Source: Candidatus Omnitrophota bacterium
GTDB lineage: Bacteria > Omnitrophota > Gorgyraeia > Gygaellales > Profunditerraquicolaceae
Direction: 5' to 3'
Length of the DNA: 64,000 nucleotides
Assembly: GCA_028716965.1 (NCBI GenBank)
Contig: JAQUOV010000003.1
Coordinates: 5,302 to 69,301 of the forward strand
Shown here: positions 27,901 through 51,900 of the stretch, in pieces
Position numbering within the stretch: the first letter of the stretch is position 1
Layout of the letters: every line of letters begins with the position of its first letter
Position numbers and translations under genes: made by a program
The notes under the pieces: generated by a model
The model's input: the letters and a program-made list of their open reading frames with translations, nothing else
The model's database searches: none
What the model was told of the DNA's origin: nothing

Positions 27901-30900
27901 CATGTAATTTATAAAACTATTCATCTGCTCCTTAACTGCTTTAAGCACGCTTAGATGAAACTCCAGATCCTTGGCAACCGCAGTTATATTCTTCACAGGC
28001 ACTGTTAATATCTCCAGCCTGGCTTTGGAAAGCGGCAACTGCAGTTTCCCCTGAGCGCTTTTTAATTTATCATCGGCTTTCTGCAAATCCATTAAATAAC
28101 TTTTGGTAGTAAATTTATCGACAAATAAAAACCTGAGCCACTCATTCCGTATTAAGCTATGGATTTCTAACACTGCGCTCATCAATGGATGCCTTTTTGT
28201 CCCGCAAGCTTTAAATACCACATCTTTTAACCGTGCGCATATCTGTTCTAGCAGGCTTGCAGTCAATTTTAATTTATTATTAATATCTCTGTTCTCTTTT
28301 TTGGCATCATTAAGAATTTGACCGCAACCAGAAGATACCGGTGGAGAGGAAGCAAAAAGGATATGACCAACCCCATCTTCACATGATCTGCGAACAAGTG
28401 GATAAAAACCAATGGGATGCAAAATCGGCGAGGCGATGGTATTATTTACGGGAAAAATAGAACAGGAGAGCTGAAAAAGCACGGCACCAGAAACAAAATC
28501 AACGAATTTCCTTGCATCCCTGGGAAAGAAATTCGGTTTATAATCATATACTGAAAAGATGCTCATTCCTATACTATGCGCCCGATACTTATTCTGAATA
28601 AGCATGCAAGAATGAGGAAAAACCAAACTATCTATGCAATCTAAATTCCTGCCATTAACGCAGATAGAAAAATCATCCGTGATGAAAACGATAAAATCTA
28701 CGGAGCTATCTTTAAGGAGCAAATGATCAAAAATTAAACGCATAAAATAAAATATATCTAAATTACCAGCGTCCGAGAGATTTATAAATCCTTGGGCGAC
28801 TGCAGTTTTTAACTGCGCATTAGGGGTTAAATAATGCATCTTTGTCTTAAAAATACTAAGCTCTTGACTAGCCTTTTCATTTATCGCTCCGGCAATATCA
28901 TAGCGGTGCCGCGCAAGCATGCCAACGCTGTCTATGCTTGAAATAACAATTGCCAGATTAGCGGGTTGAGAATTCATTCCAAAGCCGGCTCGGCAATAAT
29001 TCTTCTCGGCAGGGCTACTTGTGCCATTTGAAGTTGCAAATAGTCCATTCACTAAGCCTGTTCGCCTAAGCGGCGAGGAGCTGCGTTGATCAGTGCATTT
29101 TGGATTTGTAACTATTTTCTTACTTTGACGCCTCTTACGCTCATCTCTCCACAATAATAGCAAGCTAAGAATAGGAACCAATATAAAAAGTGGGATAACA
29201 ATATAAGAAAAAGGTGTTTTCTTAAGAAAAACGCATAATCTTTCAGTACCTTTAGAAAAATCATTTAACCAAGCCAATAAACAAATCCCATCAACCATGC
29301 CTAATATAGCTCCGAGAATTATGAACCAGGCTTTAATTGACCAAAACTGATCATTCTCAACGTCAGGTTCTTTGGCTTTATCCGCCAGCGGAGATGAGGA
29401 ATCAGGATTATTACTTTTATTGGTTATTGGTTTAATCTCTGACAAATACGGTTTAAATCCATTTATTTTCTCCAGCATATTATCCAAAAGCATGCGCATA
29501 TTTTGAAGCCCGACGCGTAAACTTGGATAGGCGTAAAGCGCATCCCGCATCCGCTCCACAGAAATGAGATAATTCTGGATCCTCTCTTCCAGCCTCCCTA
29601 TTTCAGCTGATACTTTTTCTTTGGGACGCGGCCACTCTGCCCAATACCCTTCATCAACCTTACGGAAATCGATCTCCAGGGATTCAAAGTTTTCAATAAT
29701 CTTTCGTATATCTATATTGATAAGGGAATGGAGTTCGGCGATATTGTCTTCAATCTCCCTGGTTGCTTCCAGAATTCCTGCTTTTTTTTCTCCGGCATCC
29801 AAAGATCCTGATATCTCCCTCAAAAATTCTGCGCCTTTCTTCAGCACGTCAGAAAAAGAAGGGAACCCCGTGATATCCGGTTTACAATCCTGGCGAAGTA
29901 AATCAAGTAACTGGCTGACACGCTTATCAATTATGAAACTATGCGGCAAGACAATTGAGGTAACAGAGGGTAAACCATTTTTCTGCGTGATACCAATAGG
30001 AATATCTCTTACCAAAATGCCATTTAATTCCCTGCTTGTCCGGTGGTGCTCCAGATATTGCTCTACCGGTATAATTTCTATGCCCTCGTTAACTGTGTTT
30101 ATTCTTTTTTCAGCTAAAGCAGTCAAAGGAAGAGGATCAAGCCCAAGAGCAATAATAAAAAGTGGAACCTTCTGATATTTACGGTAACAATCCAGGGACA
30201 GGCGAGAGATCTCCTTTAATTCCAGCGAAATCTCCTCTAAAGAAGCTGTGCCCGCATCGCTGCCGAGGATAATGTTGATGCTTAGCGACAATCCTAAACC
30301 AAGGATTCTCTTAATAAGATCTTGTGTTACCTTGATATATTGATCTCCGGACTGTGTCTTACCCAAGTGTTCTGCCTGAGAAGGAACAAATGTTTCCACG
30401 CCCACTGTCACTATCTTTATTCCGGCTCCTGCCATTAGCTTCAGCAGCTCTTCATCCGCAGGAGAAACAACCCTAAATTGGCAAATAAACGATACTCTTT
30501 CATTTAGTGCCAGTCTTTTTATTTCATCACATAGTTTTTCTATCCATTCCCTATCCTGGATAAAGACATCATCGGCAAAATCTATCTTTCTTACCCCATG
30601 CTCAATAGCCTGCTGGCAGATTTGCGCTACCCTTTCAGGGCTAATCCTGCGTCCGCCGCTATATGGAATCTGTATTGCGCAAAAGCCGCATTTCCCCGGG
30701 CAACCACGCTGGGCATATAGAGAAACAGACTTAAATCCCGCTTTTTTAAAAATATCCCAAGGGTAATTTATAAGGCTGTCCAATTCTCCTGAAAGCGGCC
30801 GGCAATGAAAATATCGCTGAAGCCTTTCCCCGGCGTCCATGCCCCCTGCTCCCTGTTTTCTGATCAAAACCTCTCCACTTTCCTTCTTCAGGAAGATCCC

Positions 30901-33900
30901 TTCAATAGGAATGGCGATTTGCAGTTCTTCTTCGCCTTCAACTAATTTCCGCACAAAAATAGTGTTGATTATATTATCTGCCTGCGTTTCTGTAATAGGG
31001 CTTTTATAAAGATTCCCTCCTAACATTACTTTCAGGTAATCATATTGAGGATTAATAAGCTGATAAATGTTTTTAAAAGGAACAACCATTCCTTCCGGGG
31101 AATCCTTTCTGCGTAAATGTCTTAAAACCAAAGGCAAGGTTATCTCTGTTTCCCCTTCCAGGATTATGTCTACCGCAGGATGATTTATCAACTTCTCGGA
31201 ATATGGCCGAAGCCCCTGCCCCCCCAACATGACCACGGCGCAAGGATCAGTGGATTTGACTTCTATAGCAACCTGTAAAATAAAAGGTAAGGTATAATAA
31301 AGAGTGGATAGGCCGATAACGTCATATTTTTCTTTCTGAACCGCCTTTAATAACTTATCCTTATGGACAATCAGCTCGACTTCAAATCCCGTTTCTTTTG
31401 CTAACTGCAAAAGCGGCAACAAACCAGGAGAATCCTGGCTGGGAGTAAAATCATACGGCAGGTAAAATAAGAATTTTCGTAGCAAAGGATCGGAATGATT
31501 GATGCAAGAGGAGCTCCCCTGACAATATCTTTTAGCCAGCTGAGCGCAAAGATTTTGATATACGCTACCCGTTATACGGCTGGCTAATGCTGCACGCACA
31601 TGCCTTACCTGGGGATAATACATTAGTTCATTTAAATCAAATGAAGATAATGCCTTAAAAAAATTATCCATACGCTCATAATCCGTACTTGCCTGTATTT
31701 TTTGCAACAAAGCCTTAAAATATCTTTTACGCGGCTTACTCATCTTTTCAAGAATAAGCCAGCTTCTAAAATTATCGGCGATTATTTCAGGGTCGTATTG
31801 CTGAATCTCTTCAAGAATACCTCTGTAAACTTGGATCAATTCATCTATAGCCTGCCAGTATTTGCCTGCCAACTCTAAACCTCTGGCATCCAGGAACTTC
31901 TTAAGAACAGGCTTAATATCTTCTATTCGGTTGAGCTTGCTCTGTACGTAGAAATAAGACCGCGGAGAAAGCATGGCTGAGATCCAATCAGCAATGTTTA
32001 AAGCTAGAGTTTGTTCATATAAAACCGGATTACCGTAAAGCTGGAGGGGATTATGATGAGCTAAGATCATCTCAATTTCATCGTTACTTAAAGATATGCC
32101 CCATTCATCGCAAAGCACTATGCTGCCAAAAGGATGTTTTGCTTTTATCTTTTCGTAGTCATCTTCTGACAAATCAGAAGGATAATTAACCAGCGGCAAC
32201 AGCATGAATTTACCTAAATCATGCAGCAGGCCGCACCTCCTCATAGATTCAACAACTTCATCATTAAACCCCAGCAGCCGGGAAAGGATTGCGGCAAGTT
32301 CCGAAACCTGGTAAACGTGGGCAATATTTTCTTGGGAGCCGAAAGGAGGAGCCCGGGCAATAATAATTTCTTTTATCCGGGCAAGGGCTAATGAACCGGA
32401 AACCCGATTATTGATAAAACTGGCGCTTGATTCAACTGAACCAAATATAATATTAGAAACCGTTTGTCTATCTATAAGCCTGGGCTTGCCGGATAACTTA
32501 AAGCTAATTGAATTCGAGGCGGCATTGCCTAACGGTACCAGCGGAGAAGCGCCTTTCTTTTTGGTAATTTTCGAGTCCATGAATTTCCGTATAGGCGGAA
32601 CCTGCCTGTTTTCGGCTATTTCTTCAAACAAATCGAGAGCGCGCTGAAACATAATATCCGTCATTTTCTCTAAAACCAAAAATGCCCTGGATAATTCAAG
32701 TAGATAAATTTCCACTCTCTCCGCATAATTATTCCATTCCTCACGTATTTCTTCATAATCACCTGAAGAAAGCTCGATATAACCCAACAGCTTTTTATCT
32801 ATTTCATGCGGGAAAAGCCATTCATCTTCCCATCGAAAAGCATTGGGATACATCCAATCCTTTCTAGTTGTATCTGTTTTAATAAATAAAATAACCGGCA
32901 AATATCCTAAATCTCTTTCACTGGCGTTAAAAGGGTCGTCCATTTGTTTTATCCCATAGCAAACCCTGGTCTTTATATCCTGCCTTAACACCTCCATAAA
33001 TTTCTCTGCACTAATGTTCCTTACATCTTCATTTAATAACGCTACGTTTCCATAGAAATATCTTGATTCCATTACCGAAAGGAAAGTCTGGTAAGACAGA
33101 CCATGCAGGCCTATGTCAGGCAGTAATCTGATTAACCGTTGCGCCCTATTCGGGTCTTTCCAAGCATCCAGCGCAGAGGAGGCGCGATTTCTGCCATCCT
33201 TGCTGTGAAGAGCTAGCGATGGCCTGATAAGCTCTTTAACTACTTTTAGGCACACAGCATCATCATCCAGTAATCCCGGTAACTCTTGTATATAAACAGT
33301 TAAAACCATCTCCTTTGAAGCGCCCAAAGCATTTAGTTCTCTAACCATAAACAAGCGAAGGGATTCTTTGTCAAAAAATTTTCTTAGGCCGTCCAAATAA
33401 AGGGCGATAATCCCTTCTTTCGACAGCAATCCTTTTAGGTTCTGTAAAGCCAGCGTTAAAATCCTGAAATCCCGGCTACGGGCCCTATACAACCACCAGC
33501 TTTTTGGGAATAATTTATACCAGATAATAAAATACAGGCAGGCGCAGAAACAACTAATTCCAGCCAGGTCAAAAATGGCTAAGAATACAGGTGATGAGCT
33601 TCCATGGGTTGAGCCGGTAACTACATAAAGATTTCGTCGAGCAAAAAGCGAGTTATTATTAAGCTTCTCCCACTCATAAAGGCTGCTCACCCGATCCTCA
33701 ACTTCCTGGCTACAGTATTTTCTAAAACTTATTTTCTTTACATCAGAAAAAATCTCATTTTTTATCAAAAACTTCGTTACAGCGTCATCAAAAATAGAAC
33801 TCTCCTCAAATATAGACAAAATCTTGCTTAGGATCTCCTTTACCTGTTCCAGGTATTCTTCGGATAATGGCAGTGAGTAAAGATAAAGCGGCGGTTCATT

Positions 33901-36900
33901 AATCAAATATTTATTGAATTTAATTGAAAGATAAAGCGTTAGCTGGTAAATAAAGTTCGGCGAGCTGTATTGCCTGTTTATTCGCTTCAAAATTTCGCAT
34001 ATATTCGAAAGATAGTAAGCTAACGGCTGGGCCTCTAAATCTCCCCATATGCTTAAGGGGATAAAATTAAAGAAAGAACATAAATTATTATGCAACAACC
34101 ATATGAATTGGCTATCCTGCGTTAACCTTTCCTCCAAATCTGTGTCAGAGTAGTCCCTTAATTCTTTAATAAACTTGATAGTGGCATGCCTCTTTAAATT
34201 CAATCTTCTGTCTGTCCTGATATCTATTATTTGGGCATTATTTTGAACCTGAATCGGTGAAGAGCCTTTCTTCCGGATAACTGGATCCGCCACCAGCGGA
34301 GAGGCGATTATCTTATTATTGGTCTCGGATAACAACCCTGATAGCCATTTAAGATCCAGAACTTTCATCGGCCCGGTAAGGGGGAAACTAAATTCTTCGC
34401 TGGGTAGCTTTTTAAACTCAAGAACCATCATTATCAACCTGATTGTCTTTTGCAACCTTTCCAGGGCAGCTCCTATATCTTCGTCATTAAACTCAATCTT
34501 GCTTTTTGAATACAGAAGCAAATTCCCGAGTTGCGCCAATATATCTATCTCTTTGAAAATATCCCCTAAGGCTCCTGCGCGAGTAAAAGTAGTAAAAATA
34601 AGCTTTATCTTACTTATTTTGCTGTTTACGGCTGTTTCAACGCAAGCCTGGATCTCCATGGCTAACTGCAGTAACATGCCATTCAAATTATCAGGGATGC
34701 TGCCTTGGCCTATTCTATCTAATATTTCTCTACAAATGTTTATCCAGCCCTCCATAATATCTCTTCTCACAGGCACATCGGCAGGTCCCCTGATACCGTC
34801 GCATTCAAACGGTGAAGAGGCAGGCTGATCAATACGTTCAAGCTCTTGCAGCCTCTGTTCATACTTCCCGGATTGACTATAGATCCCTGTTTCAATGATA
34901 AATGTATTTACTGCAGCGGGCAGCAGTTCGCCGACAGATTGCCCATTCCCAATCATTTCTTTAATATCAGTGGATGATATTTCGGCTTCATAGCGCGGCA
35001 ACCTGAATGGATAGGAACGCATTCTTCTGTTGAATTTGATATTTCTCTGATATTCAGGAGTTTTATCAATCATTTCCCCTCTCCTGTCCATTACTAAGAA
35101 ACAGTTTTCCTTAAAAAGCTGGGTGAGTTCTTTGTTAGAATGCTCATTTAATGTTGCCTGCATAGAATCTTTTCCAACAATAAAATAGGTTTTTATTTTT
35201 TGCCCGTAAACTTCCCGATAATATCTTCTTACCCCTTCTCCAATCTGCGAATACAAACCCCTATTAGCAATGAAGATCTTATCCGGCACCAATAACCCAT
35301 TATTCTGCGCGTTGTCAAAAGCAGTTTGAAGAGTCAAAATTCTATCCTCCGGAGACATCCCATTCATTTGTTTTCTTATGTGCTTTGTCCCTATTATGAC
35401 AATAACCTCATCTAAATATTTATTTTTGGACAACTCAAGTATCCTGGCTTGTTTTATTAATTTAAAATGGGCCAGATGAAACGGATTTGCGGTGAAAGCG
35501 CATATTCCTATTCTAAGAGACCTATTTTGTTTTTCTTCGGTAGGTTTGTATTCTTTGACTGGGATTACTGCGGGTTCATTGAGAGCGTTAACCTGGCTGA
35601 CCTTTTTACGTACATCTTGCCAGGCAAGCACACAATTCTCTGCCTCCCATTTATTCTCTGATAATATTATCTTAATAAACTCATCCCAATCCTGGTTATC
35701 CAAAGCTTTGGCTGACTTAATCATATCTTCAAAGAATTTAAACCCTGCAGCATCATCTTTAATCCTTTCCATCGTGTTCCAACGCAGGAGCCAAAGGAAC
35801 TGATGCGTAAATCTTACGCGCAGCATTTCAGGAATTGCCCTGATTTCCTGTTCACTTAACGGATAGCCGAAATTCTCCGCGGCTTTTTGATAATCAAGCA
35901 CCCATTCGATAAGCTCTTGCATATTAAATTCCTGGCCGTCTTTATTCAAATCAAAGAAAAGACTGCGCACTATATCGTAAATCCTCGCTTCTTCCCTGGC
36001 TATCTCCCAGTCAAAAACCCTCCTTACGCGCTCCTTTAAGAAGCTTACATTATCAGGCCTAAAATCACCGTGTATCACTGCCCTTGGCAGTCTTTCATAT
36101 AGCCCGGCCATTACCTCTTTAATAATCCCGATCTGTTCTTTAAAATAAGGGTAATTATCCAAGAACAATTTTTCTGCCCCGTCCAATTCCTCACGGACTT
36201 TCCCGGATAATTCCTGAAACGCGGTATCTAACTTCTTTTCGCGGGCATCCACCCCTTCAAAAGTAACAATCGGGTCAGTAATCCTTTCACCCTGTATTGC
36301 TTTAAAGCGCTTATCTATGGTAAAACAGTGCAGTTTCGCCAGGAATGCTGCCGCGCTCCTCATCATTTCAGGCGTTAATTCATCATTAGAGTAAATTCTT
36401 CCCTGTTCGTCATATTTATGAACGGTGAAAATATTGTCTTCTTCCCGGTAAAGGACGGTTTCTTCTTTTGTATACATAATTTCCGGTATCTCAATAAGCT
36501 CATCCTTGCTGAATAAACAATCAAAGCATTCATTTTCCCAAATACTTCCTTTTAAATCCCATACTGATTTCTTGATCACAACTCTACCGGCATTCTTCGT
36601 TTTCGCGATTGCCACCACTGTTGCCAAACCGCGGTACTCGATTATTTCTTCGTCAATAAGCTCTAACCCGTAAGCTCGGGCAATGTCCCTTATCTCCGCG
36701 AGGGTAATTTTTAACTGCGAGTCACGGCTAATGGCGAGCTCCCTTATCTTCTTTAATTCCGTAAGGCTATCCGGCAATTGCCGGTAAATATCAGTAGCCC
36801 TTAACCCCTGGCCTTTTTGTTTTTCCGCTAAATCACCCGCATAACCATGTAAATACGCCCCTAAAACAGCAGCTTCAAAAGGAAGCAAGCCCTGGCCAAG

Positions 36901-39900
36901 CAAGCCCGCGATTATTCCTGTGAGCACGTCGCCTGTTCCGGCAGTAGCCATATAACGATTTCCTGTTGTATTGCGATACACTACACCTCGCGGATGAGCG
37001 ATAACTGTCTGGTCCAGTTCATGCCCCTTCAAAACTACGATAACCCCATACGCGCTGGCAAATGTCCGGGCTACTTCAGCCCGATTTGCCATAATATATG
37101 CCTCATTCTTACCGGTTAACCGGCTCATTTCTCCTATATGAGGCGTAATAATTATCCTCCCCCCTGCTTTTCTTAATAGTGAAGGCTTATCCTTTAAAGC
37201 AGTAAGCGCCCCGGCGTCCAAAACAATAGGAATTTTCGTATCTCTTATTAAGGTATAGACCATTTCTTTTGTTCCTTCTGTTTCTGATTCAAGGCCCGGG
37301 CCGACAGCTAAAGCATTAATTTTAAATTTCCGTATAAAATCAAGGATCTGCGCGGGTTTTTGTCCCGACAAAGTAATTACTTCATCGAATTTATTTGCAT
37401 TAAATTCCTGCCTTAAATGTTCGGGAATTGCCGCGCGCACTAAACCCGCTCCGCTTCTCACCGCGGCTTTGGTGGTAAGTTGCATTGCGCCGATATATTC
37501 ATCAGAACCGCCTACCACTAACAACCTGCCTCTTGTGCCTTTATACGCATCAGGCCTTACTTCCGGCACAAGAAACGCCGCATCTTCTTTGTGTAACCTC
37601 TTTACGTCTTTATTCAGTACCGCCTCAACAAATAAGACTATGTTCGGAAATTCTACGTTTTCTGTGATGATTTTTATATCTTTGTCCCAACGGTTAATCT
37701 GCCGAGCCGGAGTAAAGTTATCAACTATAGCCGTAAATCCTAATTCAGAAAGCACATCCACATATTCTTCAATGCTGAAATACTGCCAGCCTTCTTCTCT
37801 TTCAATATCCCAACGCGGCCCGCCCACATATAAATATTCGCAGGCAAAAAGCGGAAAATCCTCTTTTTTTATTCTCACTCTATAGCCATTTTTTGAGAGT
37901 TTTTCATAATAAATTTCCTTGGGCAGGAATTCCCGCGCAAACCCGTAGAATCTGTCTCTTGTATCCTTATTCTTAAACTGAATCACTACATATTCATTTA
38001 ATTCATCCCGCGAAACAGCTGCCCCGTCATAAAGATAAAGGTGGCCATACGGCTTCATCATCAGCTTTATATTACCCAACGCCCTGGCAACATATTTCTT
38101 GCCCAGTTCAGGCACAATCCTTTCATGTATATCTCCAGAAGGCCTGCCGTAATAAGAGTAAACTTCATGCAGCACATTGATGACCAGCACAAAATCAAAT
38201 TCACCGGTTAAATCGCTTAAATCTCCATCAATAATATCCCTGGTTATATAGCAGATATCGCCGACTACCTGTTTTGCCTCATCAATAATATCCGGGTTAA
38301 GGTCAAGCGCTACATACTCAATGTTCGGCTCGTTGGGAAATATCTCTTTAAGCAAGGCTATTTCTATTGCCTGGCCGCAGCCGATTGATAAAATCCTCAC
38401 CTTCTCACCCCGGCTTAACTTTATCCTGATAGCTTTTATGAGGCTTTCCATAATCTTTCCCTTGCCGTCTAAAACCATAAAAGATGACTTCATGCCATCC
38501 AAATAATCTTCCAGTGTCATGCCGCTGCAAACCGGCCTGCCTCCTTTAAATTCAGCAAACCTGCGGTAAATCTTGTTTTCTTTAATATAGGCGCCTATTT
38601 TGTCCGGCACATAATCGTCAAAAGGATTACCACCTTTAACACATACCCTAACCCTTGCTGAAGAAATATGCTGATAGTATTCATTAACAGGCAAACGATA
38701 TAAGCTGCCTGTATATTCTCTCAGATCCGGTTTCACTGCTAATAGATTATCAAGATCCATCCCTTCCTGATCAGCCACTACAAAGGTATAATTATCAAAT
38801 AATTCTTTTATAATATCTTTCCTGCCTTTATGCTCCCACTCAAGCATAGTGTTAAATGAGAGCATCCCGGTAATAAAATGTATATCCGCGCGAGGATATA
38901 ATCTCTTGATTTTTCTGCCGATATCAAAGTATAAAGTATTTTCGCTAAGTATTATTTCATAATCCTGCCTGTCATTTGCCCATAGTTTCAGCATCTCTTC
39001 CCGTTCATATAAGCTTGTCCCAAGCACTCTTGTTCCCCTGGGGTTGCCGGTAACCGCTAAAATAATTTTATCCAAATCATGCTCTTGTTTTGCTTTTTCC
39101 ATTACTTCAACCATGGATTTAGTCAAGGGGTTAAAAGTACTGGCAAAGACTCCTAATTTAAACCTGCTATTATTTGCCAGCGGCGAAGCGGCGATGGCGG
39201 AATGCCTGGAAATCATAAACATAGTATAGACATCTAACGCCTTAATTAGTTCTTGTATGGGGAAAGAGCTGTTAAAAGCCCCAAGGTCGGGATTCTTTTT
39301 GTCTTCCATCCATCCGTACGATCTATAACCCGGGAATGAAAACTCTACGGATGGATCAAAAATTCCCTGCGGCAGTTTCTTCTGGTTCAGCATGTGCACG
39401 TAATGTTTATCCATAAAAACAGCCATTTGTTTAGCCAACATGCCCCAATTCACTAATGCCGAGATATCCGCGTCATTTCTTAGAGTAAATACCTCATAGG
39501 CATGGCCGAATATTTTCTTTATCCTTATCGAGAGCTCCTTAATATAGCCGTTCCCTAGATTTAATTTATGCCGGCTCTTCATTCGCTTGCCTTCGTTTAA
39601 CACCCAGGCCAACAGATAGTTCCCCATAAAGTGGGCAAGCAAGATTTTCCTGCGCTGCGGGACAGGAAACCTTCGCAGGTTATTACGCAGGTAAGCCGAA
39701 TGCCTGTTCTCTAAATCAACCAATTCATCAAGGGTAAGCATTTCGGCAAAGTCTGCCGGCCCAGAAATCCTCATGTTGATAAAATTAACCCCTTTCTCCC
39801 AGGCATGCATTCTACCTGTACCCCTTCTTCTCTCTAGGGGCCGGATGATCTCCGTCATCCAAAGGAACACCCCTTCATCAAGCCTTGCCCCCTCCAAACA

Positions 39901-42900
39901 ATGAAACAAATCAGCTATGTCAGGGTGAATATACCCATACCTGGCAAGCAAAAACAAATCGTGGATATTCCTTAATGACGCCTCGCCTATTGCTTCATCA
40001 TCCGCTTCATGAAGATAGATGAAATAATCAGGAGTTTCAGTGGTATACAGCATTACGGTATAGAGGTTATCCTGAGTATCAACCGAAAATTCATTTCCAG
40101 GCTGTTCATATTCCATGATGGATTCCCTTATGTATTGCGGTAGGTCTTCCATGTCGATCCTGAATGCCCGTTTCCCGTCTAAAGGAAGCGCCCGCGGGTA
40201 ATCTCTCTTTAAAGGAACACCCTTTCCTTTTAAAATGTTTAAATGGTCAAAAAATTCACTTTCAAAGATAAGGCTTCCCGGATCTTCTCTTATCTCCTGC
40301 CATTGGCGCTTTATCCTTTTAAGAAACTTTAGGGCAATAAATTTATTCTCCCTTGTCTTTACCGCTGTTGTCCTCCCCATATTCCTAAATAAAACACTGC
40401 CTTTTAATTTCTCCAGGAGCGCTGCGCTATTACCCAATAAAGGCGGCTCCTGGGATTTAAACCGTGGACCAGGTACGCTCAACGTGCCTAGTGTCACCGG
40501 AGGAGAATCCAAAATGCACCTTTCCGCGATCCGGCTGAATGTATTAGGACTGTCGCCGTTGATGGTAAAAGCGATGCGGAATAATATAAAGGCTTTTTTT
40601 ACAAATGGATGTATCTTTAATCCTGTCCTGGATAAAACCGATAAAAATGATCCCAACCTGGCGGCCGGATAGGCATAATTGTCTTCTGATGAGCGCGCAA
40701 TCTCTTGGGTAAGTTTCTCCTGTAATCTGTTATTTATATAATTCACCGTCTCATGCAATCCCGCCTTATTTTTTATCTTTTCAGCCAAGATCTCAAAGAA
40801 AAAGCTCCTATATTGCGTGTCTCTAAAGAAAATGAATAACTGTATTAAATCATTGGAAAGATAGGTAAGGAGGCAGGATGCCTTCAAATCTGCTTCGTCT
40901 TTTAATAGGAACATAAGATTTAAAAGATAAGAATAGATGTTGTCGGGCTTAAAGCCATATTTATCCGCGCAAAATTCTACTAGCAGCTCCGGAATATTCT
41001 TGATCCTTGCAATCAAACCTCTTCTCAACAGGGATTCTATCTTCTGAATATTAAGTTGCCGCACTGACCAATCGCAATTACAAGAATTTTTAATAAACTC
41101 TTCCGGAGAGAATGAGATTTCTCTTTCAGATGCGAATCTTTCTTCAGCCCTTTCTTCAGCCCGGTATTTTAAAATAAGCTTGCTCGCTATTTTTTCTTTC
41201 GGGATTATTCCTGATTGGAATAAATAATTTGCTACGGCTGATTTACGCGCCCAGGAATGCCCCCCTGCGCGCTGGGAATCTCCTGCATCGGGGATTAAAC
41301 GGTTCAGGTTTATTTCCCTTTTTAATCTTTGCCTTTCTTCCTCTCTGATCAATCCGGCATCGTTGAGATATTTTATTGCTTCAGCGTTCCTGACCCAAAT
41401 ATAAGAATCTGCCTCGTTTAATCCGGTAATTAAATCAGATAAGGGAATTCTTGCATACATTTCTTCTCTTTTTATCAATCCGGCCTCAACAAGGTAATTT
41501 ATTGCCTCGGCGTGCTTTGTACGCTCATCAGGATTCCCGGAGTTTAAACCTGCGCTTAATTCTTCCAGGGGGATCCTCCCTTCCAGCTCTTCTTCCCGGA
41601 TCGTCCCTGCGGTAAGCAAAGAATTTACCGCCTTGGCGGTTAGGAAGCGGATATGAGGCTCTTTGTCGCTTAATCCGGAAATAAAAATATCCAAAGCTGT
41701 ATAATAAAGATACGCCTGTTGCAGGGTGGCTTCGTTCAGGAATATGTCTTTAACCCAATCCCTGAGTGCTGCGGATTCTCCCAGCGCAGAGGCGGCACCG
41801 TAACTCTTGGTTCCTAACCCTTGGCTCGTAAGCAGCCTGTTCTGTGTCAAAAACTGGGCTTTTTCATTAGGATGTTTTCTTATCCCAACTGCCTGCCAAG
41901 GTTGGACAACGATACCTTTCCCGCAGCTGTACAGAACAAAAGAAATAAAAGGAGGCTCAACTTTATTTTTTATATACTTTCTATAAGATGGCATACCCGT
42001 ACTGGGTCTACTGAAGGTCGCCCTGATGCAATGCCGGAATTCTCTTAATAAGCCGGCTTCCAATTCTGCGACTCTATATAAAATATACCGTTTAGCCGCC
42101 TTGACAATTTCTTCTTCTATTCGCGCAGGAGGAATACTGTCTAGAAATAGGTTTCTTCTTGCATGCTCAACCCATCTTTCAAAACCGGCAGTCTTCTCCA
42201 GGTGCGGATAGATTCTTTCTTCTACAATACACAACTGCTCTTCCAGCTCTTGCTCATACTGTTTATAATAAAATGAAATAGCGACTATGTTAAACAAATC
42301 ACGATATCGTTTTTCCTGCACCATTGCCCTTAAGCTACGAGTATATTTTTGCGTTCTTACGCGCGGAGTTCCATTTACCCTTTCTGTTGTTGCGTCGGGG
42401 ACTACCAGGTTTATTTTTATCCCCGGAGGGTATATATCCTTAATTTCTAAAGATAAGTTATGAAGATTGCCAAAAGTAGCCTCTTCTGCCAAATCTGCTT
42501 CTGAAACCGGTAAATTCGGGTTCTTTACCCCTCCCCACCCTAAAAGAAGTTCTATCGGTAAATTATCAGCGGCTATTGCCCTTATTCTTTCTATGATTTC
42601 TTCCCGGGACATCTCCGGATGTTTAGGACCCGTCCTATACCTTCTAGAAGTAAATATCGTATATATTTGTTCGCATGTTTTTTCTAATGCGGACACTATA
42701 GGTGATCCACCGGGAATCTGCGTAGAGGCACCAGAACCACAAACATAGGGCAGTTGAATTCCTCTGCAATATACTTTAAATATTGAGACAGGAAACTTCA
42801 CTTGACTTGACCAATAAATTCCCCACGGGATAATCCCGAATATCTTTTTTGGCTGCCACTCTATAAACTGAAACCTAACCCACTGTTTGAGCTCCAGCTC

Positions 42901-45900
42901 TACTATCCCATTATCTATCTCTTCCACTGAAGAAAATTGTATTAAAAAGGTTCCACTATCATACCGAAAACCTTTGTGCCCATCTCCGACAACCTCCCGC
43001 GCTTCTTTTATTGGAATACCTTCATTTATCTTTAACACCGTAACGTTATCAGCCGGTATATTTCTTCTATTAAGCTCATTGCGTAATATTCCAGCCAATC
43101 GGGCTAAGTCTTCCTGCGTGTTGGAAATTCTTGGAATGTAGGAAGAAACATCCACTTCTGATTTCATAGGAGGCAAGATTCTACGATAAAGATTCGCCAA
43201 TAACCCTAACGGCGAGGCGCAGGAAAATTGAGCAAAGTGCTGTTTTGTAGATTCCCATCGGCTCACGAATTCTTCAGGTAATATTGCCAATACTTTCCGC
43301 AAATATTTATTTTCCTGTAAAATATTTAAAAATGCGCTGGTTCCCGATAATACCGCTTCTTCAGTCAAACCCAACTCTCTGCCTAAATGACGTACTCTAT
43401 TTTCCGATTCTTTTGGCTCTAATATAATATAAGTTGCCGCCTCGTCAACTGCCCTTAAGAAATATGCCTGCTCTTCGATTGCTTTGCGCAGCGTCAAATT
43501 ATTAGTTAAATCCAAAAATGCCCTAATCTGCATTTCCTGTTCCGGTGTCATAGGATAATCAGTGCTACGAACCAGGAATATAATACGATTAATATCTATT
43601 TCCAGCTTCTCCAATAATCTACGGATTTCCCCACTCTTGGATAAATATTCTATGGTATTAGCGACTACCGGCTTAGAACCCTGCTTCCTCCCCGGATGAA
43701 GGTCATGTAATAATCCGGCTGCTCCCATTTCCAGGATACACTCAACAGGATACCCCTCATATTTAGAAATAAGAACAGACAGATAAGATGCTTCTAAGCT
43801 ATGGCTAAAGGTATGATAACTGTGGATAAGCCAGGTGTCTTTATCATATTCAGCTTTCACAAATGAAAATAACTCATCCAGATAACTCTGGGCTTTGCCT
43901 GACAGATTAAGGATTTCTTTTATGTTTACCCACAAATCGCTTTGTAGCGGCGAAGCGACAGTTCGCTTACTTTCCCTTGCTTCTAAACGGTTAAGGTTAA
44001 TCAACAGGTTTTCAATTTCTGCCTGCTGGCTGATATAAACTGCTCGGGCCTGCGGGTTAAGAATATTTACCTGCCCATAAGGCACCATATTCGGCAGATG
44101 CTTGCGGTAAACTGACTCGTGAATATACGGAATAAAAGGCATCCGTATTTCAGGCATTTCTTTAATCTGGCAAAACTGCTCCAAGAACCAAAACCAGTTA
44201 AAATAAAATTCGCGTATATCGTCCTCTAATTCATGCAGGCGGCGCGCTGCCCAATATGTAAAAATACCTTCTTTCCAGCTAACCATAATTAAAGGAACTA
44301 ATAGGTCTTCCGGTAGGTGCATAACAGGTAAATTCTTGCAGCGCTTAATAACCTCATCCCGCAGCCCCTTGAATAACTCAATAAGATTCTTTATCCTTCC
44401 CTCATTTTCAAATTTTACCAATACAATACCGGTAAATGCGAGCATTTGAAATTTGGCATAGTTTCCCAAATCATATATCTGGGGAATAGCTTCCCTGACT
44501 AAATAGTTGCCTAATTTCTCATGATTAAATCTGGCAAAGAATTTTTTGATCAGCTTAGAATGGTCAACTAAAAATATCCCTGATAGTTGTGCTTTAACCT
44601 GTGGATAAGACGCCCAGGCACTCATTAAAGTTATATCCCCTTTACCCCCCATAATCGGCCCAAGATATATCCTGTCCGCATTTAAGATAACAAGAGAACC
44701 GGAATCAATGGCTGAAGCAAAAACTGCCTTGTAAGCATTAAGCAATTGCAATTCAAATGTTTTAAGCGGACGTTGCAGCTTTCCCGTGAGACCAAAGGGC
44801 AAATTCTGCAAAAGGGTATTTTCATCTTCATTGTCGGCTAACAAACCTATAATTCTTAAGTCTTTTACCATTTTCCCGTTGAAACTGCGGAATTCTTCCT
44901 GATCGCTCATAAAACTTACCTGCGAATCGCCGGATAGCCTTTCCATTAAAACTGTGGCAGGATCATCAAGGTTAACCTGTTCAAACAGTTTCAACATGCT
45001 CAAGCCGTTACCTTTACCATAGCCATGCATAAAAACAACAGGGACATCCTTACGCCATAGAACCTGTTTTGTCTCCTGTAATAAATCTTTCAACAGATTC
45101 ACGCGCCCAAGGGGGTTGCCTGCCATTACAAGAATAATATCGGCGGCTGGCTCGCCATTGTTCATTTGAGCATCGCATGCTTCCTGCATCCTGTGATATT
45201 CCTCATTGCACATCTTTTGCCTGAAATCGATTCTTTTGTCAGACTGCGCCGAAGAAAACAATCTCAATCTCCTTTGCAGCATTCCCGCTTCTATTAATTT
45301 TGACTTATAGCGGAAACTGGTAAAATCCCATTCGAGGAATATCCAATGCATTACCATCGGAGAAATAGATAAAATAATCCTCCACCAGTCGCTTAACAAC
45401 CTGATATTGCCTAATTTGGGGACAAAGAGTTCATACAATAACACCGCGGACAATATGCTAAAAATCCTGGAAATCGTACTGCGGTACGGCCATCCTTTTC
45501 TCCAGCCTAAACGTGATTTCTTGGTTCCAGAAAGATAAAAATCGATATATTTCTGAAGGGATAAACGGATATCTTCGGGATTCGGGTATAATCCCGGGAT
45601 AAGCCGATTACCTAATTCCATAATAGAGCCCGTTAATTTCTTTAATTCTCTTTTATTTACAAACGCATTGAGGCTTATACCAAAAATCGATCTCATTACC
45701 GGCATTAATCCCAGAATTTCAAAAATGCTCCACGGCACAAGTATATAGCTAGGCACACCTTCAATATTGCCCATTCTATGCATAGCCCAGCTGTAGCTAA
45801 GGCTATACCCCCTTACAACTCGCAATACATCGATTTTTACCTGTAATCCCCTGCGGGTAGATTCGGGAACGGAGAAATTTTTTAAGTAAGCCTTTATTTT

Positions 45901-48900
45901 ATATACAGCCTTTAAGGCAATTTCATCCAAACGCCTAAATGCCGCCTCCCTTTCCTCCTTTACCGCATCTGTCATTTGCGTAGAGAATACATTCGCAGCA
46001 ATCAAACCATTTATCAGGGTAAGCATTTCCGAAATGCTTCTTTCATGGAGATTGGTGATATCGCTGATATGTTCTTCGTAATAATCATTTACGAGCTTAA
46101 ACGCCATATTTTCCTCTATAATATGTTGTGTTTGCAGCCTGAACATTTCTCTAATCCTGCGGCCTGTCTGCCAACGCGTATAGACGCAGGTTGCATAAGC
46201 AATAAGGATAACAATACCGAGCTTTATCTTTAACGGGATAACCCCGAAGGATTCAGCCAATACCCCGATAGCGCTATAATCTTCTACTAAATCGCTGGCT
46301 GCCCAGCTAACTAAAGGTATAAACAATAGAGAGGAAATTCCCGCTATGAAAATAATACTCCAATTCCGCCATCTGCTTTCCAGTATCCTTTCGGCTAAAC
46401 TAAGTGGCGAGGCGGCAGGGCTGTTAGGCGGGAATCTTTGCCACCTTTCCCAATACCGTAAAGGATAATAGATATTCTTCCTGATATAATCATATGGTGG
46501 CTTGCGGCGTAAGATATGCTTTTCAATGGATGACAAAAGATGCGGAGCCAATATCTGCTTAACCCTTGCTAAGTTATATTTATCGGCTCTAGCTACTTGT
46601 TCGAAAATAAAGGTATTCAAGCGGCCCATTGCGCCTTTATTTGTTCCTAATATCACTGACGTCTCAAAATCTATAACATACGCCTTTGGTGCCGAAGGAT
46701 CACCGGCCATAATATTTCTCCATTTGTGAAGAGAACCATGCGCCACTCCTTCTTTATGCAATTGCCCTACAACCCGCTCCAGATTTTCCACAAATTCAGA
46801 AAAATAACCTGAATTGCCTGCCGGATCATCCCTCGTTTCCTGAAAAACATCGGCCAGCGTTCTGGCTTCAATAAATTCAATGTCAAATACCCTGTTATTA
46901 AGCACCCTGAGTAGGCCAGGAATCCCCTCTAAGCCGCTTAATCTATTTAAAACAGCCACTTCTTTTTTGGCTAATAAAACAAAAAATGCGTATTTTCTAA
47001 TAAATTTCTCTCCATCCGCTTCATATAATTCTACCTTCGCCTTGAAATCTTCACAAATCAATCTAACTGACTGCGTATTCACCGGAGAGACGGGCTCAAG
47101 ATAAGCAGGACTGGAGGCCTTACGCTCCATGCCAAAACCCGCCACATAAGCACCCAACGGCGAGGAGGATAGGTAATCTAACGAAGAAATAACTGCAATT
47201 AGAGGCTCATTGGTCAACGAAGTATATTTGACAATCTTGGCCATATCTTCATCCCCCGAATAAGTGGCTGTTTTTCTTACCGTGGGATAGCCGGCTTTTG
47301 CCGTTAGCTTAACAAATTGTCCCGGTGAACGCCTGGTGATTAAAACAATTTTCTTACCCGGAACTTCGCCGGAATCATAGGAATATACATTCATTTCCAT
47401 CCCCTGACAACACAGTGAATCTGCAAGATTGCTGTAGAATTCCATAAGCCATATCTCGGAATAAGGAACAAACACGGTGTTTATGATAACTCCGCCATCC
47501 TGAAGCTGATTAACCAAATTACACCATGCTTTTAAAGGATCATTCAGGTATCTTAAAACAAAAAAAGCCGTTATCAAATCCATTTGTCCGGGAAGTTTTA
47601 TGCTTGTGATATCTCCCGGTATGAAATTAAACGGCTTATACTCTGAAAGATAAAGTCGCACTTCCTCCATAGGATATACTTCTTTTATTTCCTTAATTTC
47701 TCTCTCGCTTAAGTTATTACCATTCCAATTTATAACGTCAGCTCCGTAACAAACCAAATTATCCCCGAAAGAACTCTTGGCTCCGATCAAAGCCCTGCCT
47801 ATGCCGCATCCGGCATCCAGCCATCTGACAAAGCGCCTTGAAGTTTCCCTGTTTAAATATTCATTTAAACAAAAATCAGCGCCTGCCTCTTTTAATATTA
47901 AATCGTAAGTTTCTAAATCCCTGGATTTTCTTGTGCGCTGGTGGATTAGGCCCTGTTCAAATATGAGGGCTCCTTCCGGGGTCGATGCTGCAAAGAATTC
48001 CAGCAAAATTCTGATGGTAAGAAATAGTTGTAACGGGGAATAAAGGATGGATTGATCAAGATAGAGAGTTTTCTGGAACGCGCCAAAGAATAGATCAAAC
48101 GGCCCTGCCCTAATTCCTCCGGCATCAGCTAAGAATTCATTTAATTTAAACACCAATTCATGTCTGCCTGTTTCATTTAATGATGATTTCAGCGGCAGAT
48201 ATATGTCACGTTTCAATATCACCTTTTCTGAGCCGGTTAAAGGCCGTAACAATGCCGCGTGCGTTTCTATTTCGTAGCTAATTTCTTTCTCTGTCAGGGG
48301 CCATCTTGTTTTTGAACGCGCCGGGGCAAAAGGAGAACAAGTCAAAGCTGAACTAGCGCTTCTTGGTTTCTTTTCTCTCAAATTCCCGGTACCATTGTTA
48401 GAAAAGTCTTTATCGGTAACTTTATACAGGAAAATGAATGACGGGATGCTGGCTAATGCGGCTACCAATACTATGCCTTGCAAAGAAAAATTCGCGCTCA
48501 CCAGGATAAACGACAGGATGGTGCCAAAGATCCCCGCCGCTGCATCTATTGTCTTGCCTAAACCAAAAGCAGCTCCGGCTTCTCCTTCCGATAGCGAAGC
48601 CATATACGCCTTCTGCGTTGTAGAGCGCATGCCCAGACCGGTTTGGTTGATTATTTTTGAAATGACGATCATCAGGAAAATTCCCGGGAAAAAGGCAAAA
48701 ATGAATGTCGCCACCGAATAAAAAAAGTATCCTGTACATATGAATGCTTTTTTGGAAGCGAAACGCCCTGAAACATATCCGAAGATTAACTGTGAACAGG
48801 AACCGATAAGGATAGTTATGGCGGTAAAAATACCCATCTTCATTGCCGCCGCGCTGAAATTATGCATAATAAAAGGTATGACTGGAGAGACGATCTCCTG

Positions 48901-51900
48901 TGAAAAACTCAAGAAAAATGAGGCCATCCCAAGCCGGCAGATATTATAAATTGAATCGGGGTTGAACCTGCCATTGGGACAAGCATTATTTTTCAGCCAT
49001 AACCATGGCGCTCTCCAAAAATCAAAAGGGGAACGGTCTTTCCCGAGCCCCTCTTTCCTTATCGCGCTGGAGGATACATAAATACCCGGGGTCGCCGCAA
49101 ACCTATCAATAATCTCCTGGTATGCCTCTATTGCCAGGAACCTTCCGTTGCTGCCGTTATCAAAAACCTCCCCCCTCTTGTTCTCTTCTTTAAGATATAG
49201 CTCGAGGTGCTTAGGCTTAATGCGCATTTCTTTATCAATGAGGCTTATTCCCCTGGCTGTAATCAGCAGTTGCCGTTTTAACAGGTAACTTGCCCGGTCG
49301 ATTACATCGCGGAAACTCCCCTGGACATGCTCAAGTTCAAGATCAGTACGATCGCTAAGATGCGGCATAGCCGGTACAAATGTGTTTAAGGTAGAAAAGA
49401 TGCCTTTACGCTGTGATTTCCTGTCCAGTTTGTATAAAGTGGAAAGGTTATGAATTCTATCGCAAAGCTTAATAAAAAGCGCGATCGCAGCTTCATAGTC
49501 CCCTGTACGCGCGGCCTTAACAATCCGCAGCAGATATTCTGCTTCGCTTTCGCCCGGTTTTTTAGATAAAAGCACAACTATCCTGTAAAGCTCGGGGAAT
49601 TCTCTGCGAATCTTCCGCTTAACGGCAACGTAGTCTTCTCCGGCATCTTCAAGCGCGTCATGCAAAAAAGCCACTATTATCATGCTTATTAACCCGTCTG
49701 GGCTAACAATTACATTAAACCCGAAACGTGATAACACATTTCTGGCGTACAAAAGTATCTCGCTTGCTATCTCAGCCACCCCGACGGGATGCCAAATATA
49801 AGGAGTTGTTCTATCTCTGCGCGCCAAGCTCAAGTGTTTTTCCGCCACAATTTCCAGGGCTTTCTTAAGGCTATCCCTGTCCCCGGGCCGCAAGTTAATG
49901 CCTCTATCCCTAAGCAGCGATAAAAACCTGTTTAAAACCTTATCTACAAGGCTGCCGCGGAATAAATCAATAGTTCCGCAATCTTCCTGCCCGACCTTCT
50001 TCTTGAGTTTCTTCTCAAACCGTTCAAGATTAAGGCTATCGGGAATCTCTAATTCAAAGATAAAATTAACCTTATTCCTTGTCCCGGAGATGCGGGGAGT
50101 GAGAAATTGTGATATGTTAATCCTGTTATCTTTAAAAAATACGGCGATTTCGCGTAAATTTCCCGGCCGGTTCGGCAGAGTAAATTCCAGCACATATGTC
50201 TTGTATTTGCATTCCTTAAGTTCATCCTCATATTTTTTGTCGCGATAATCCTTTACTTTCCGTAGCTCAAACAGGATTTCATTCAAAAGTTGTTTTTTGG
50301 GAAATTCAAGGCCCAATGTTAATATACGTCCGGCACTGCTTTTCTTCATTGCCATAAAGGTACCATTAGCTTTATCTCCGATCTTGATTAAAATATCAGC
50401 AAGAAGGCCCGGGCGTTCATTATTAAACTTGATTTCAACATCCCGTCCCCATTTCTGCGCGGATTTTTTCCCAAACCGCCACTTTCCCTGAATATGCCTT
50501 GCCTGCACATATGGCACTTCAACAAAAGTCACGGGAGAAGCTGCCTTTATCCGTTCTTTCGGCGGCTTCGGATTGCTTATGCTGATAACAACGCCAAAAT
50601 GCTCTAATACGTAATATAACTGCAAAGCCCCGAATACTTGTTCTAATTTACTCCTGATATCCGTATTCGGCTTCTGCGCCTCAATAAACAGCTTGAATTC
50701 AGCCAGCGTAAGCTCAATGGTAAAACCCTCTTCGCTATATTCATATCGCTGGCGGAGCTTTCGCCCTTCAATGGAAATAATATTACAATCCCGCCTATTG
50801 GCAAATGCAACCAGCTTTTTTATAAGGTTCGGCTTGCCATCCTTTGATTTATCATGTTCGCCGTGGATAGCCACATTGTTAACTACCCTCAGGAATTCAT
50901 CATCCCGGTTTAAAATTCCCTTTTTTCTATGCGCCTCAATTAGCATTCCAAAAAGTTGCAATGCGATCTGGCCGACAAGATCCCTGAGCCGAAGGGTATA
51001 TTTAAATTCATAAAGCACTCCGCATTTACCGTCATCGCTGCACCTCCAGCCGTCGCATTCTATTTTTTTCTTTGTTTTTGGAAAAGCGTAGATTGTATTT
51101 ACCGCGTTTAAACCAAGTACCGGAAGGGATAAATCCAATGCCCTTACCGTATCCAGGAACTCAAAAGTGAACTTATAAACTCCGGAGACCTCCCCTAAAA
51201 TGCCTTTTACCGCGCAGGCATATGTATCATAGTAATTCTTAAGTGCTTTGCTCGATCTGTTGGATTCGCCGGGCTTTGCATTTCCTATTTCAAACATCCG
51301 CAATAATGTTTTCTTTACGGCATCGAATAACGCGCAGCGCCTCCTGATATCTTTATGGTGTATTTCCCAGATGCCTTCTGAAAGCAATTGGTCCAGCTTT
51401 CTCAATAATACGCCCATATCCGCCCTATCTTTAGCAAGCGGCTTCTGCCACCGCGGGATAACCGCCAGGCCTCCGAGCAATCTCTTTAACGCGTCGTCAT
51501 CCTTGGTGACGGCAATAAGGCCGAGAATCAGGCTGAAAATTCTTCCTTCTGAAATATTCAGGACGGTAAAACGAGGGATTAGGTCCTGCTCTATATAATC
51601 CTGCAATTCATTACTGATAACAGGATCTCCAAGCTCTATATTGTAAACAAGAGAAAACATCTTGGAGAGATCCGGTATCGCTTCCTCTAACTGCCGCATC
51701 CTGCCCGCAGCCGGATAATTGTATTTCTCTAAAGAAGATATGATACTGCTGCGTTCAGCCTGCGCCGACTTCAAAACAAAGATTACGTCACCCTGATGCG
51801 TCTGCAAAGATTGATTCATTGATTTATGTATAAAATGCCTTATGACAAAGGAGATAAAACCCGGATTGTTTATCTCCTCCAATGGGAGCACGATGCACAT

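Follow-up and report, generated by a model that had tools for sequence, protein, structure and literature searches.

A divergent PvcA/IsnA-type domain within a giant multi-enzyme protein of an Omnitrophota bacterium

A 64,000-nucleotide stretch of DNA from a Candidatus Omnitrophota bacterium (GenBank assembly GCA_028716965.1, contig JAQUOV010000003.1, positions 5,302 to 69,301; hereafter 'the window') carries an open reading frame (ORF) for a giant multi-enzyme protein, and both homology and fold identify within this protein one complete, single-copy domain of the PvcA/IsnA (PF05141) superfamily. In the canonical IsnA/PvcA reaction, the amino nitrogen of tyrosine or tryptophan is joined to a carbon of ribulose-5-phosphate, which yields an isocyanopropanoic acid, and an iron- and 2-oxoglutarate-dependent (Fe/2OG) enzyme next decarboxylates this compound to a vinyl isonitrile (PMC11350588; PMC7949033). 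Isocyanide synthases (ICSs) of this type have been described mainly from Proteobacteria, Cyanobacteria and Actinobacteria among the bacteria, and from fungi; in these groups their partners, whether separate or fused, are oxygen-dependent Fe/2OG enzymes or domains resembling nonribosomal peptide synthetases (NRPSs) (PMC5974471). The domain described here is a member of a divergent, uncharacterised clade of the superfamily, and what is new is the occurrence of this clade in the setting of a giant multi-enzyme protein and in a new set of taxa.

Homology and predicted fold of the domain

When the domain alone is compared with the Pfam profile PF05141 (DIT1_PvcA), it scores 34.3 bits (E 2.3e-8) against a gathering score of 26.4. 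The match also stays above this cut-off in longer contexts (32.4 bits in a 556-residue piece and 28.5 bits in a 5000-residue chunk), with E values ranging from 1e-6 to 2e-8. An initial annotation of this DNA had proposed a PvcA/Dit1-type domain inside a multi-enzyme mega-protein of about 15,000 amino acids and had named the PF05141 search as the check on this idea; both the domain and its host protein are borne out by our analyses. The alignment spans only part of the profile (positions 31-138 of 273), and a search of the PDB with the domain as a single sequence reaches PvcA only at an E value of 0.15. Taken alone, the partial match and the single-sequence result constitute modest evidence.

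The relatives of the domain provide the remaining evidence. A phmmer search against 1.84 billion cluster representatives returned 100 relatives with E values of 1e-3 or lower, 13 of which are at 1e-30 or lower. A word-indexed protein search found nothing with the single domain and only two proteins with a family profile, and a first scan of GTDB with the single domain found no relative; the source genome is not among the GTDB species representatives. The family profile is based on an alignment of the domain with 41 relatives, and 40 of these 42 sequences match PF05141 individually. Compared with the PDB, this profile matches PIsnA (9DH4, 9DHM) with an E value of 2.7e-15, such that profile positions 26-281 align with chain residues 7-283, and it matches PvcA (3E59) with an E value of 3.6e-14. 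An AlphaFold2 model built from the same alignment has a mean predicted local distance difference test score (pLDDT) of 94.1 and a predicted template modelling score (pTM) of 0.92, and is free of disordered insertions. The eight best Foldseek matches to this model in the PDB are all PIsnA or PvcA chains (9DHM, 9DH4, 3E59; E values 5e-11 to 5e-10, TM-scores 0.66-0.73), and next come cyclodipeptide synthases and tyrosyl- and tryptophanyl-tRNA synthetases (TyrRS and TrpRS) at E values of only about 1e-3. A chance resemblance, or a spurious Pfam match in a very long protein, might account for a partial alignment that exceeds the cut-off by 2-8 bits and for the weak single-sequence result, but this explanation is ruled out by the full-length match of the family profile, by the PF05141 matches of the individual members and by the Foldseek result, and its probability is negligible.

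Many of the relatives are standalone proteins of 280-310 amino acids that align to query residues 30-315. Because these homologues span that length, the domain can be delimited as an autonomous unit of about 286 residues (Table 1), which is flanked on either side by linkers rich in glycine, serine and proline. A hidden Markov model (HMM) of the clade agrees with these limits (366 bits over residues 7089-7376) and, when run over the whole ORF, finds no second copy. The interval given by the initial annotation (41899-42666, corresponding to residues 7095-7350) was nearly right, but it is about 18 nucleotides short on the N-terminal side and about 72 nucleotides short on the C-terminal side, where its edge cuts through the conserved QPWQA motif.

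Conserved residues and motifs

Residue conservation was evaluated by aligning 53 relatives, which reveals 59 columns conserved at 80% or more; the roles of residues considered in this study are drawn from conservation only. The window's copy agrees at 46 of the 59 columns, and most of its differences are conservative. Of these columns, 15 are also identical in PIsnA, and the window's copy retains every one of them (P7131, I7132, K7142, N7145, E7155, L7162, Y7173, P7175, G7176, Y7202, A7285, I7308, R7309, P7350 and W7351). For deriving search patterns, the 42-sequence alignment proved too diverse and was replaced by one of 16 sequences, including the window's domain, in which 21 invariant columns form a tightly conserved core. 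The motifs that had been quoted in support of the domain are present, with KNPN at residues 7142-7145 and DIYPPGIKINLVVPD at residues 7171-7185 (nucleotides 42394-42438).

The motifs of the clade comprise R17, P-I, W-G-G-x-K-N-P-N, D-x-x-E-E, Y-x-P-G-L, [G]-D-x-R-V-x3-N, Y, S, A-x-x-N, A-A-x-x-Y-x-x-Y-R-x-x-E-E, I-R and K-G-N-x-T-Q-P-W-Q-A. The two IsnA-type isonitrile synthases used for comparison, PvcA of Pseudomonas aeruginosa (3E59) and PIsnA (9DH4, 9DHM, 9DHN), have the same fold as the window's copy over the whole domain and share with it a collinear series of elements: P-I-E, K-x-P-N, D-x-A-E, Y-x-P-G, the aspartate of S-D-G, a tyrosine, I-R-x-[ST] and P-W. However, the clade also has invariant residues of its own that are absent from PvcA and PIsnA, namely W7138-G-G, N7143, N7192, N7266, Y7288, E7295, K7344-G, Q7349 and Q7352. 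Moreover, where PvcA and PIsnA carry C-S-D-G-[R/H]-V-F-G-D the window's copy reads V-P-D-A-T-T-E-R, and their P-W-H-G is replaced by Q-P-W-Q-A.

Two positions set the window's copy apart within its own clade. The arginine of the D-x-R motif, which is present in 91% of the clade (and is arginine in PvcA and histidine in PIsnA), is T7187, and the asparagine of K-G-N, present in 85% of the clade, is I7346. The arginine position is occupied by isoleucine in a near relative from a Ratteibacteria metagenome-assembled genome (MAG), here called P0002, whereas four other copies embedded in giant proteins retain both residues. The loss of both residues suggests that the window's copy may have altered substrate use or lower activity.

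Relatives of the domain and their genomic associations

About 50 related loci (designated by L numbers, and their proteins by P numbers) were examined, comprising the contexts of representative hits, 16 GTDB genomes and 32 metagenome contigs. Patescibacteria, DPANN archaea, Ratteibacteria and Omnitrophota account for most occurrences of the clade. Among the named hosts are Patescibacteria (Moran-, Portnoy- and Staskawiczbacteria), Woesearchaeota, Iainarchaeum and Ratteibacteria, together with Bdellovibrionota, Chitinophagaceae, Sericytochromatia and small-genome 'Gammaproteobacteria' MAGs. Across 18 genome loci, no gene family recurs around the clade's genes except for a fusion partner and an ATP-grasp gene, and some relatives are standalone proteins without biosynthetic context, as for example beside purF and purD.

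The fusion partner is a radical S-adenosylmethionine (SAM) domain. In 14 proteins of about 600 amino acids, from Patescibacteria and unbinned metagenome contigs, an N-terminal radical-SAM domain with a CxxxCxxC motif at about residue 33 lies right before the PvcA-like domain. These uncharacterised proteins (e.g. MBI4708613.1) belong to the same clade and share 36-40% identity with the window's copy, and their sole annotation is 'radical SAM protein'. Such fusions could form a counterpart of the IsnA and IsnB pair that is independent of oxygen, and no paper in the searched literature joins radical SAM, PvcA and isonitrile. The giant protein differs in having no such domain upstream of its PvcA-like domain: a search for a cryptic one with an HMM of the 14 fusion proteins gave no match in the giant ORF. 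At several loci a gene of 71-75 codons for an Xre-type helix-turn-helix protein overlaps the start of the fusion gene (L004:7789-8004, L014:8826-9053, L050:870-1097 and L037:15-215).

A different association is found for P0008, a relative that is 33% identical to the window's copy and was seen on 23 contigs. Its gene resides in an operon of overlapping genes that encode a histidine-rich hypothetical protein, an ATP-grasp protein, the PvcA-like protein and a TauD protein. This arrangement corresponds to the classic pairing of an isonitrile synthase with an Fe/2OG enzyme, and it looks like an uncharacterised isonitrile-type cluster of the clade. An ATP-grasp gene but no TauD gene is present at two further loci (L025, L044).

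The domain also resides in four other giant ORFs, each on a metagenome contig (Table 1), where its copies have 36-38% identity and the order of modules varies among the giants. One of these (L038) carries an entire radical-SAM and PvcA-like module (HMM E value 1e-145), and another (L042) also has MutS_V and SecA-like ATPase modules. A neighbour-joining tree (50 bootstraps) joins the window's copy to its closest relatives, P0001 and P0002, in 37 of 50 replicates and unites the copies of L039, L042 and L054 in all 50, while that of L038 falls within the radical-SAM-fusion group. From these groupings, the module entered giant proteins on at least three separate occasions.

In both P0001 (residues 1-50) and P0002 (residues 1-40), a signal- or anchor-like hydrophobic helix follows basic residues at the N-terminus, which hints at a possible membrane-anchored or extracytoplasmic location for these proteins. 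The N-terminus of P0002 lies at a contig end, and the idea that it represents a piece of a giant protein was considered and set aside, since the signal-like helix starts about eight residues in and the protein is probably about 570 amino acids long. P0002 adjoins genes for MazE, YafQ and HEPN/MNT proteins, another relative (P0007) is a fusion with a PemK/MazF toxin domain, and several contexts of the clade are rich in toxin-antitoxin or defence-like genes.

Possible functions of the domain

The initial annotation had advised looking for a PvcB-like Fe/2OG partner, and none emerged from either the giant ORF or the 13 other genes of the window. Pfam searches for PF02668 (TauD/PvcB) or any other 2OG family found nothing in the whole giant ORF at E values up to 0.01, no 2OG-Fe(II) family in the 3,000 amino acids around the PvcA-like domain at E values up to 1, and none in the 13 neighbouring genes. 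A phmmer search with the TauD protein of the P0008 operon (L006) likewise gave no TauD-like match. Such a partner is typical of vinyl-isonitrile pathways and is not required for the isonitrile-forming step itself.

Our preferred reading, which we hold tentatively and at somewhat less than an even chance, is that the domain may be a module of the giant protein that performs an IsnA-type, isonitrile-forming condensation of an amine with a carbonyl compound, followed by cleavage. An isonitrile-type function appears the most likely one because the residues shared with known synthases are kept, the predicted fold is confident and one clade member has a TauD neighbour. The domain would act as an enzyme at the membrane's cytoplasmic face; it lies between transmembrane (TM)-like segments at residues 5901-5919 and 10124-10142, and this side is predicted because the segment between those helices also holds modules that use SAM, ATP, CTP and NAD(P)HX. 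An amino acid amine, bound in a TyrRS-like pocket, would condense with a carbonyl donor, for example ribulose-5-phosphate, and carbon-carbon bond cleavage afterwards would leave the isonitrile. The product would remain a saturated isonitrile acid and not become a vinyl isonitrile, because neither an Fe/2OG oxygenase nor a fused radical-SAM domain accompanies the domain.

Several observations weigh against isonitrile formation. The clade is without any characterised member, and the domain scores only 12.2 bits with the NCBIfam equivalog NF045653 (TyIsonSynPvcA), far below the cut-off of 600. In the window's copy the canonical S-D-G-[R/H] reads P-D-A-T, with threonine in place of the clade's arginine, and the K-G-N asparagine is isoleucine. 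A TauD neighbour is found at only one of the approximately 50 related loci, whereas radical-SAM fusion is the commonest association (14 loci), and the usual chemistry of the clade may therefore differ. Also, the signal- or anchor-like helix of P0001 and P0002 would be odd for an enzyme that depends on ribulose-5-phosphate. Given the missing PvcB partner, the placement in a clade other than that of PvcA and the radical-SAM partners, isonitrile formation and a role in specialised metabolism are functions that we infer.

Nearly as plausible as our preferred reading is the proposal, also raised in the initial annotation, that the fold serves another reaction. The clade defined by QPWQA and D-x-R-x4-N might catalyse some other condensation of an amine with a carbonyl, or a step that is coupled to radical-SAM chemistry, and the module in the giant protein would do the same. 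The clade's own invariant residues fit this proposal, as does the predominance of an N-terminal radical-SAM domain as its partner (14 loci and the giant ORF of L038) over TauD. In addition, its taxa (Patescibacteria, DPANN, Ratteibacteria and Omnitrophota) differ from those in which bacterial ICSs are usually found (PMC5974471), and many loci lack a biosynthetic-cluster context, as with the purF and purD neighbours. However, every motif residue shared with the solved isonitrile synthases is kept, one clade member does have the classic TauD neighbour, and the radical-SAM partner could merely substitute, in an oxygen-independent manner, for the Fe/2OG step. A further reading is that of a canonical PvcA/IsnA-type tyrosine or tryptophan isonitrile synthase whose PvcB/IsnB-type dioxygenase would be encoded elsewhere in the genome, the two together yielding a vinyl isonitrile. 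The NCBI pipeline names P0002 an 'L-tyrosine/L-tryptophan isonitrile synthase family protein', and the fold and shared motifs agree with such an assignment, but we regard it as improbable: the NF045653 score and the 15-18% identity to the solved structures indicate that the domain is not a PvcA orthologue, and the 64-kb window has no TauD gene.

It is unlikely, although less so than a canonical synthase, that the domain has degenerated into a non-catalytic module that keeps its fold as a binding or scaffolding unit of the giant protein. The replacement of the conserved arginine by T7187 (isoleucine in P0002) and of the asparagine by I7346 would fit such a fate, in that these residues have been lost only in the window's copy and its nearest relatives and are both kept by the four other giant-embedded copies; moreover, no partner enzyme is nearby and the flanks are HEAT-like or without a Pfam match. 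Yet the 46 of 59 conserved columns that are unchanged include all those shared with PIsnA, the differences are mostly conservative, the very confident model has no disordered insertions and the 45-kb ORF is intact. A broader scenario, which we consider speculative and rather unlikely, is that the QPWQA clade might represent an oxygen-independent pathway to isonitriles, or to a related reactive group, in anaerobic, small-genome or predatory prokaryotes, among them Patescibacteria, DPANN and Omnitrophota. In this scenario the fused radical-SAM domain would replace the Fe/2OG oxygenase, and the giant protein would have acquired the synthase module for producing, at the membrane, a metal-binding or toxic isonitrile while interacting with host or prey cells.

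The giant protein and its genomic surroundings

All 14 long ORFs of the window lie on the minus strand, and GC skew is negative over its whole length. The giant ORF runs as one intact 45-kb frame from 63948 to 18892, and its GC content around the PvcA-like domain (0.41-0.42) is the same as in the remainder. Its Pfam families include HAD, aldose epimerase, trypsin-like peptidase, GH77, PRK, HD, MFS_1, several methyltransferases, DIT1_PvcA, NAD(P)HX dehydratase, APH, cytidylyltransferase, B12-radical SAM and response-regulator receiver domains. About 14 hydrophobic TM-like segments are predicted from Kyte-Doolittle hydropathy alone (19-residue window, threshold 1.8). The B12-binding and radical-SAM domains of the giant protein (Table 1) are unrelated to the radical-SAM domain of the PvcA-like fusions found elsewhere.

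Other modules of the giant protein have features of their own. Its strongest Pfam match is an NAD(P)H-hydrate dehydratase (Carb_kinase; 36772-37524, minus strand, residues 8809-9059, E value 4e-53), a metabolite-repair enzyme after which the APH kinase and cytidylyltransferase modules come. A half-size MFS_1 transporter domain with four TM-like segments occurs mid-protein (48373-48930, minus strand, residues 5007-5192, E value 6e-15). Upstream of the PvcA-like domain is a module of about 520 amino acids without a Pfam match (44152-45699, minus strand, residues 6083-6599), which is weakly similar (21% identity, E value 1e-14) to modules located upstream of that domain in two of the other giants, L042 and L054. 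A PilZ-domain gene (18183-18905, minus strand, 240 amino acids), which encodes a putative receptor for cyclic di-GMP, shares 14 nucleotides with the 3' end of the giant ORF, and this overlap suggests co-transcription or translational coupling.

The neighbouring genes are ordinary bacterial ones, encoding a class II ribonucleotide reductase, LacI, ROK, TPR and GH2-like proteins, a sugar ABC transporter and the PilZ protein. The product of mnmG (640-2502, minus strand) is 100% identical to its best match, encoded on a 222-kb contig of a Candidatus Omnitrophica MAG, and about 85% identical to the next ones; among the 120 matches listed, all named ones are Omnitrophica or Omnitrophota except for one labelled only 'bacterium'. 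Neither of the two protein collections searched contains the giant protein itself, even though NCBI holds its MAG, and domains embedded in giant ORFs may thus be under-represented in protein databases.

Table 1. Positions of the PvcA-like domain, its motifs and other modules in the window, and of related loci elsewhere
Feature	Position	Strand	Details
Complete PvcA/IsnA-fold (PF05141 superfamily) domain	41827..42684	-	Residues 7089-7374; 286 residues; single copy
KNPN motif	42514..42525	-	K7142, N7145; Lys invariant in 53/53 relatives, equivalent to K66 of PIsnA (KSPN)
ADLAEE motif	42481..42498	-	E7155; invariant in the 42- and 16-sequence alignments and in 98% of 53 relatives; equivalent to DMAE of PvcA/PIsnA
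DIYPPGIKINLVVPDATTERVNG	42370..42438	-	Holds the Y-x-P-G strand and the clade's D-x-R-x4-N motif; D7185 and N7192 kept
QKYTRSL	42331..42351	-	Y7202 invariant in the clade, conserved in PIsnA (Y129)
CIRATF	42013..42030	-	R7309, equivalent to Arg of IRLSIH in PvcA/PIsnA
QPWQA	41890..41904	-	Residues 7349-7353; the clade's form of the C-terminal PWHG of PvcA/PIsnA
Giant multi-enzyme ORF	18892..63948	-	15,018 amino acids; listed start TTG; about 20 Pfam families
B12-binding and radical-SAM domains of the giant ORF	30304..31425	-	Residues 10842-11215; about 3,500 residues downstream of the PvcA-like domain
HEAT-like helical repeats	41269..41751	-	Residues 7400-7560, directly after the PvcA-like domain; Pfam HEAT weak (E 0.025), repeats seen by eye
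P0008 operon	L006:5790-9844		Also L007, L008
Radical-SAM and PvcA-like fusions	L013, L014, L016, L017, L018, L027, L028, L030, L034-L037, L050, L052		e.g. L014:9050-10864
Domain in other giant ORFs	L038:2-11097; L039:2-19528; L042:2-18022; L054:2-20837		At least 3,698, 6,508, 6,006 and 6,945 amino acids, respectively

The arrangement can be compared with two kinds of known multidomain protein. Fungal ICSs include fusions with a dioxygenase (XanB) and the ICS-NRPS-like protein CrmA, and they resemble the giant protein in that PF05141 serves as a single module within a larger multidomain chain (PMC5974471). However, the fungal fusions join the ICS to PF02668 or NRPS-like domains that act on its product, whereas the flanks of the domain in the giant protein are HEAT-like or without a Pfam match and the other modules (kinases, methyltransferases and hydrolases) have no known link to isonitriles. 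PvcA and PIsnA likewise differ in being enzymes of about 315-330 amino acids, while the window's copy is embedded in a vastly longer protein and lacks an adjacent Fe/2OG partner. Giant proteins of Omnitrophota have been described as 'Archaeovorins' (bioRxiv 10.1101/2023.11.21.568195) and as 'multi-enzyme metabolic cluster' long proteins (bioRxiv 10.64898/2026.06.07.730766). The protein encoded in the window is like these giants in exceeding 10,000 amino acids, in carrying many Pfam families of which no single one prevails (methyltransferases, HAD, radical SAM, receiver and sugar enzymes) and in having HEAT-like repeats and several putative TM-like segments, and its length places it at the small end of the class. 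Neither PF05141 nor isonitriles are mentioned in the texts of these two preprints or in one supplement.

Concluding remarks

Our findings delineate a separate, well-conserved branch of the PvcA/IsnA fold in uncultivated, mostly anaerobic lineages, where a radical-SAM domain is its usual fusion partner and where giant proteins have acquired it at least three separate times. A single domain of this kind is not startling by itself, but the clade should be of interest to the field of isonitrile biosynthesis. Should the branch make isonitriles, this rare chemistry would be widened in both its taxonomic range and its cofactor logic, and one module of an Omnitrophota giant protein would gain a testable biochemical role. 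If it does not, the clade would represent a new reaction on a known fold. In either case, the 286-residue domain is separable from the giant protein and could be assayed alone.

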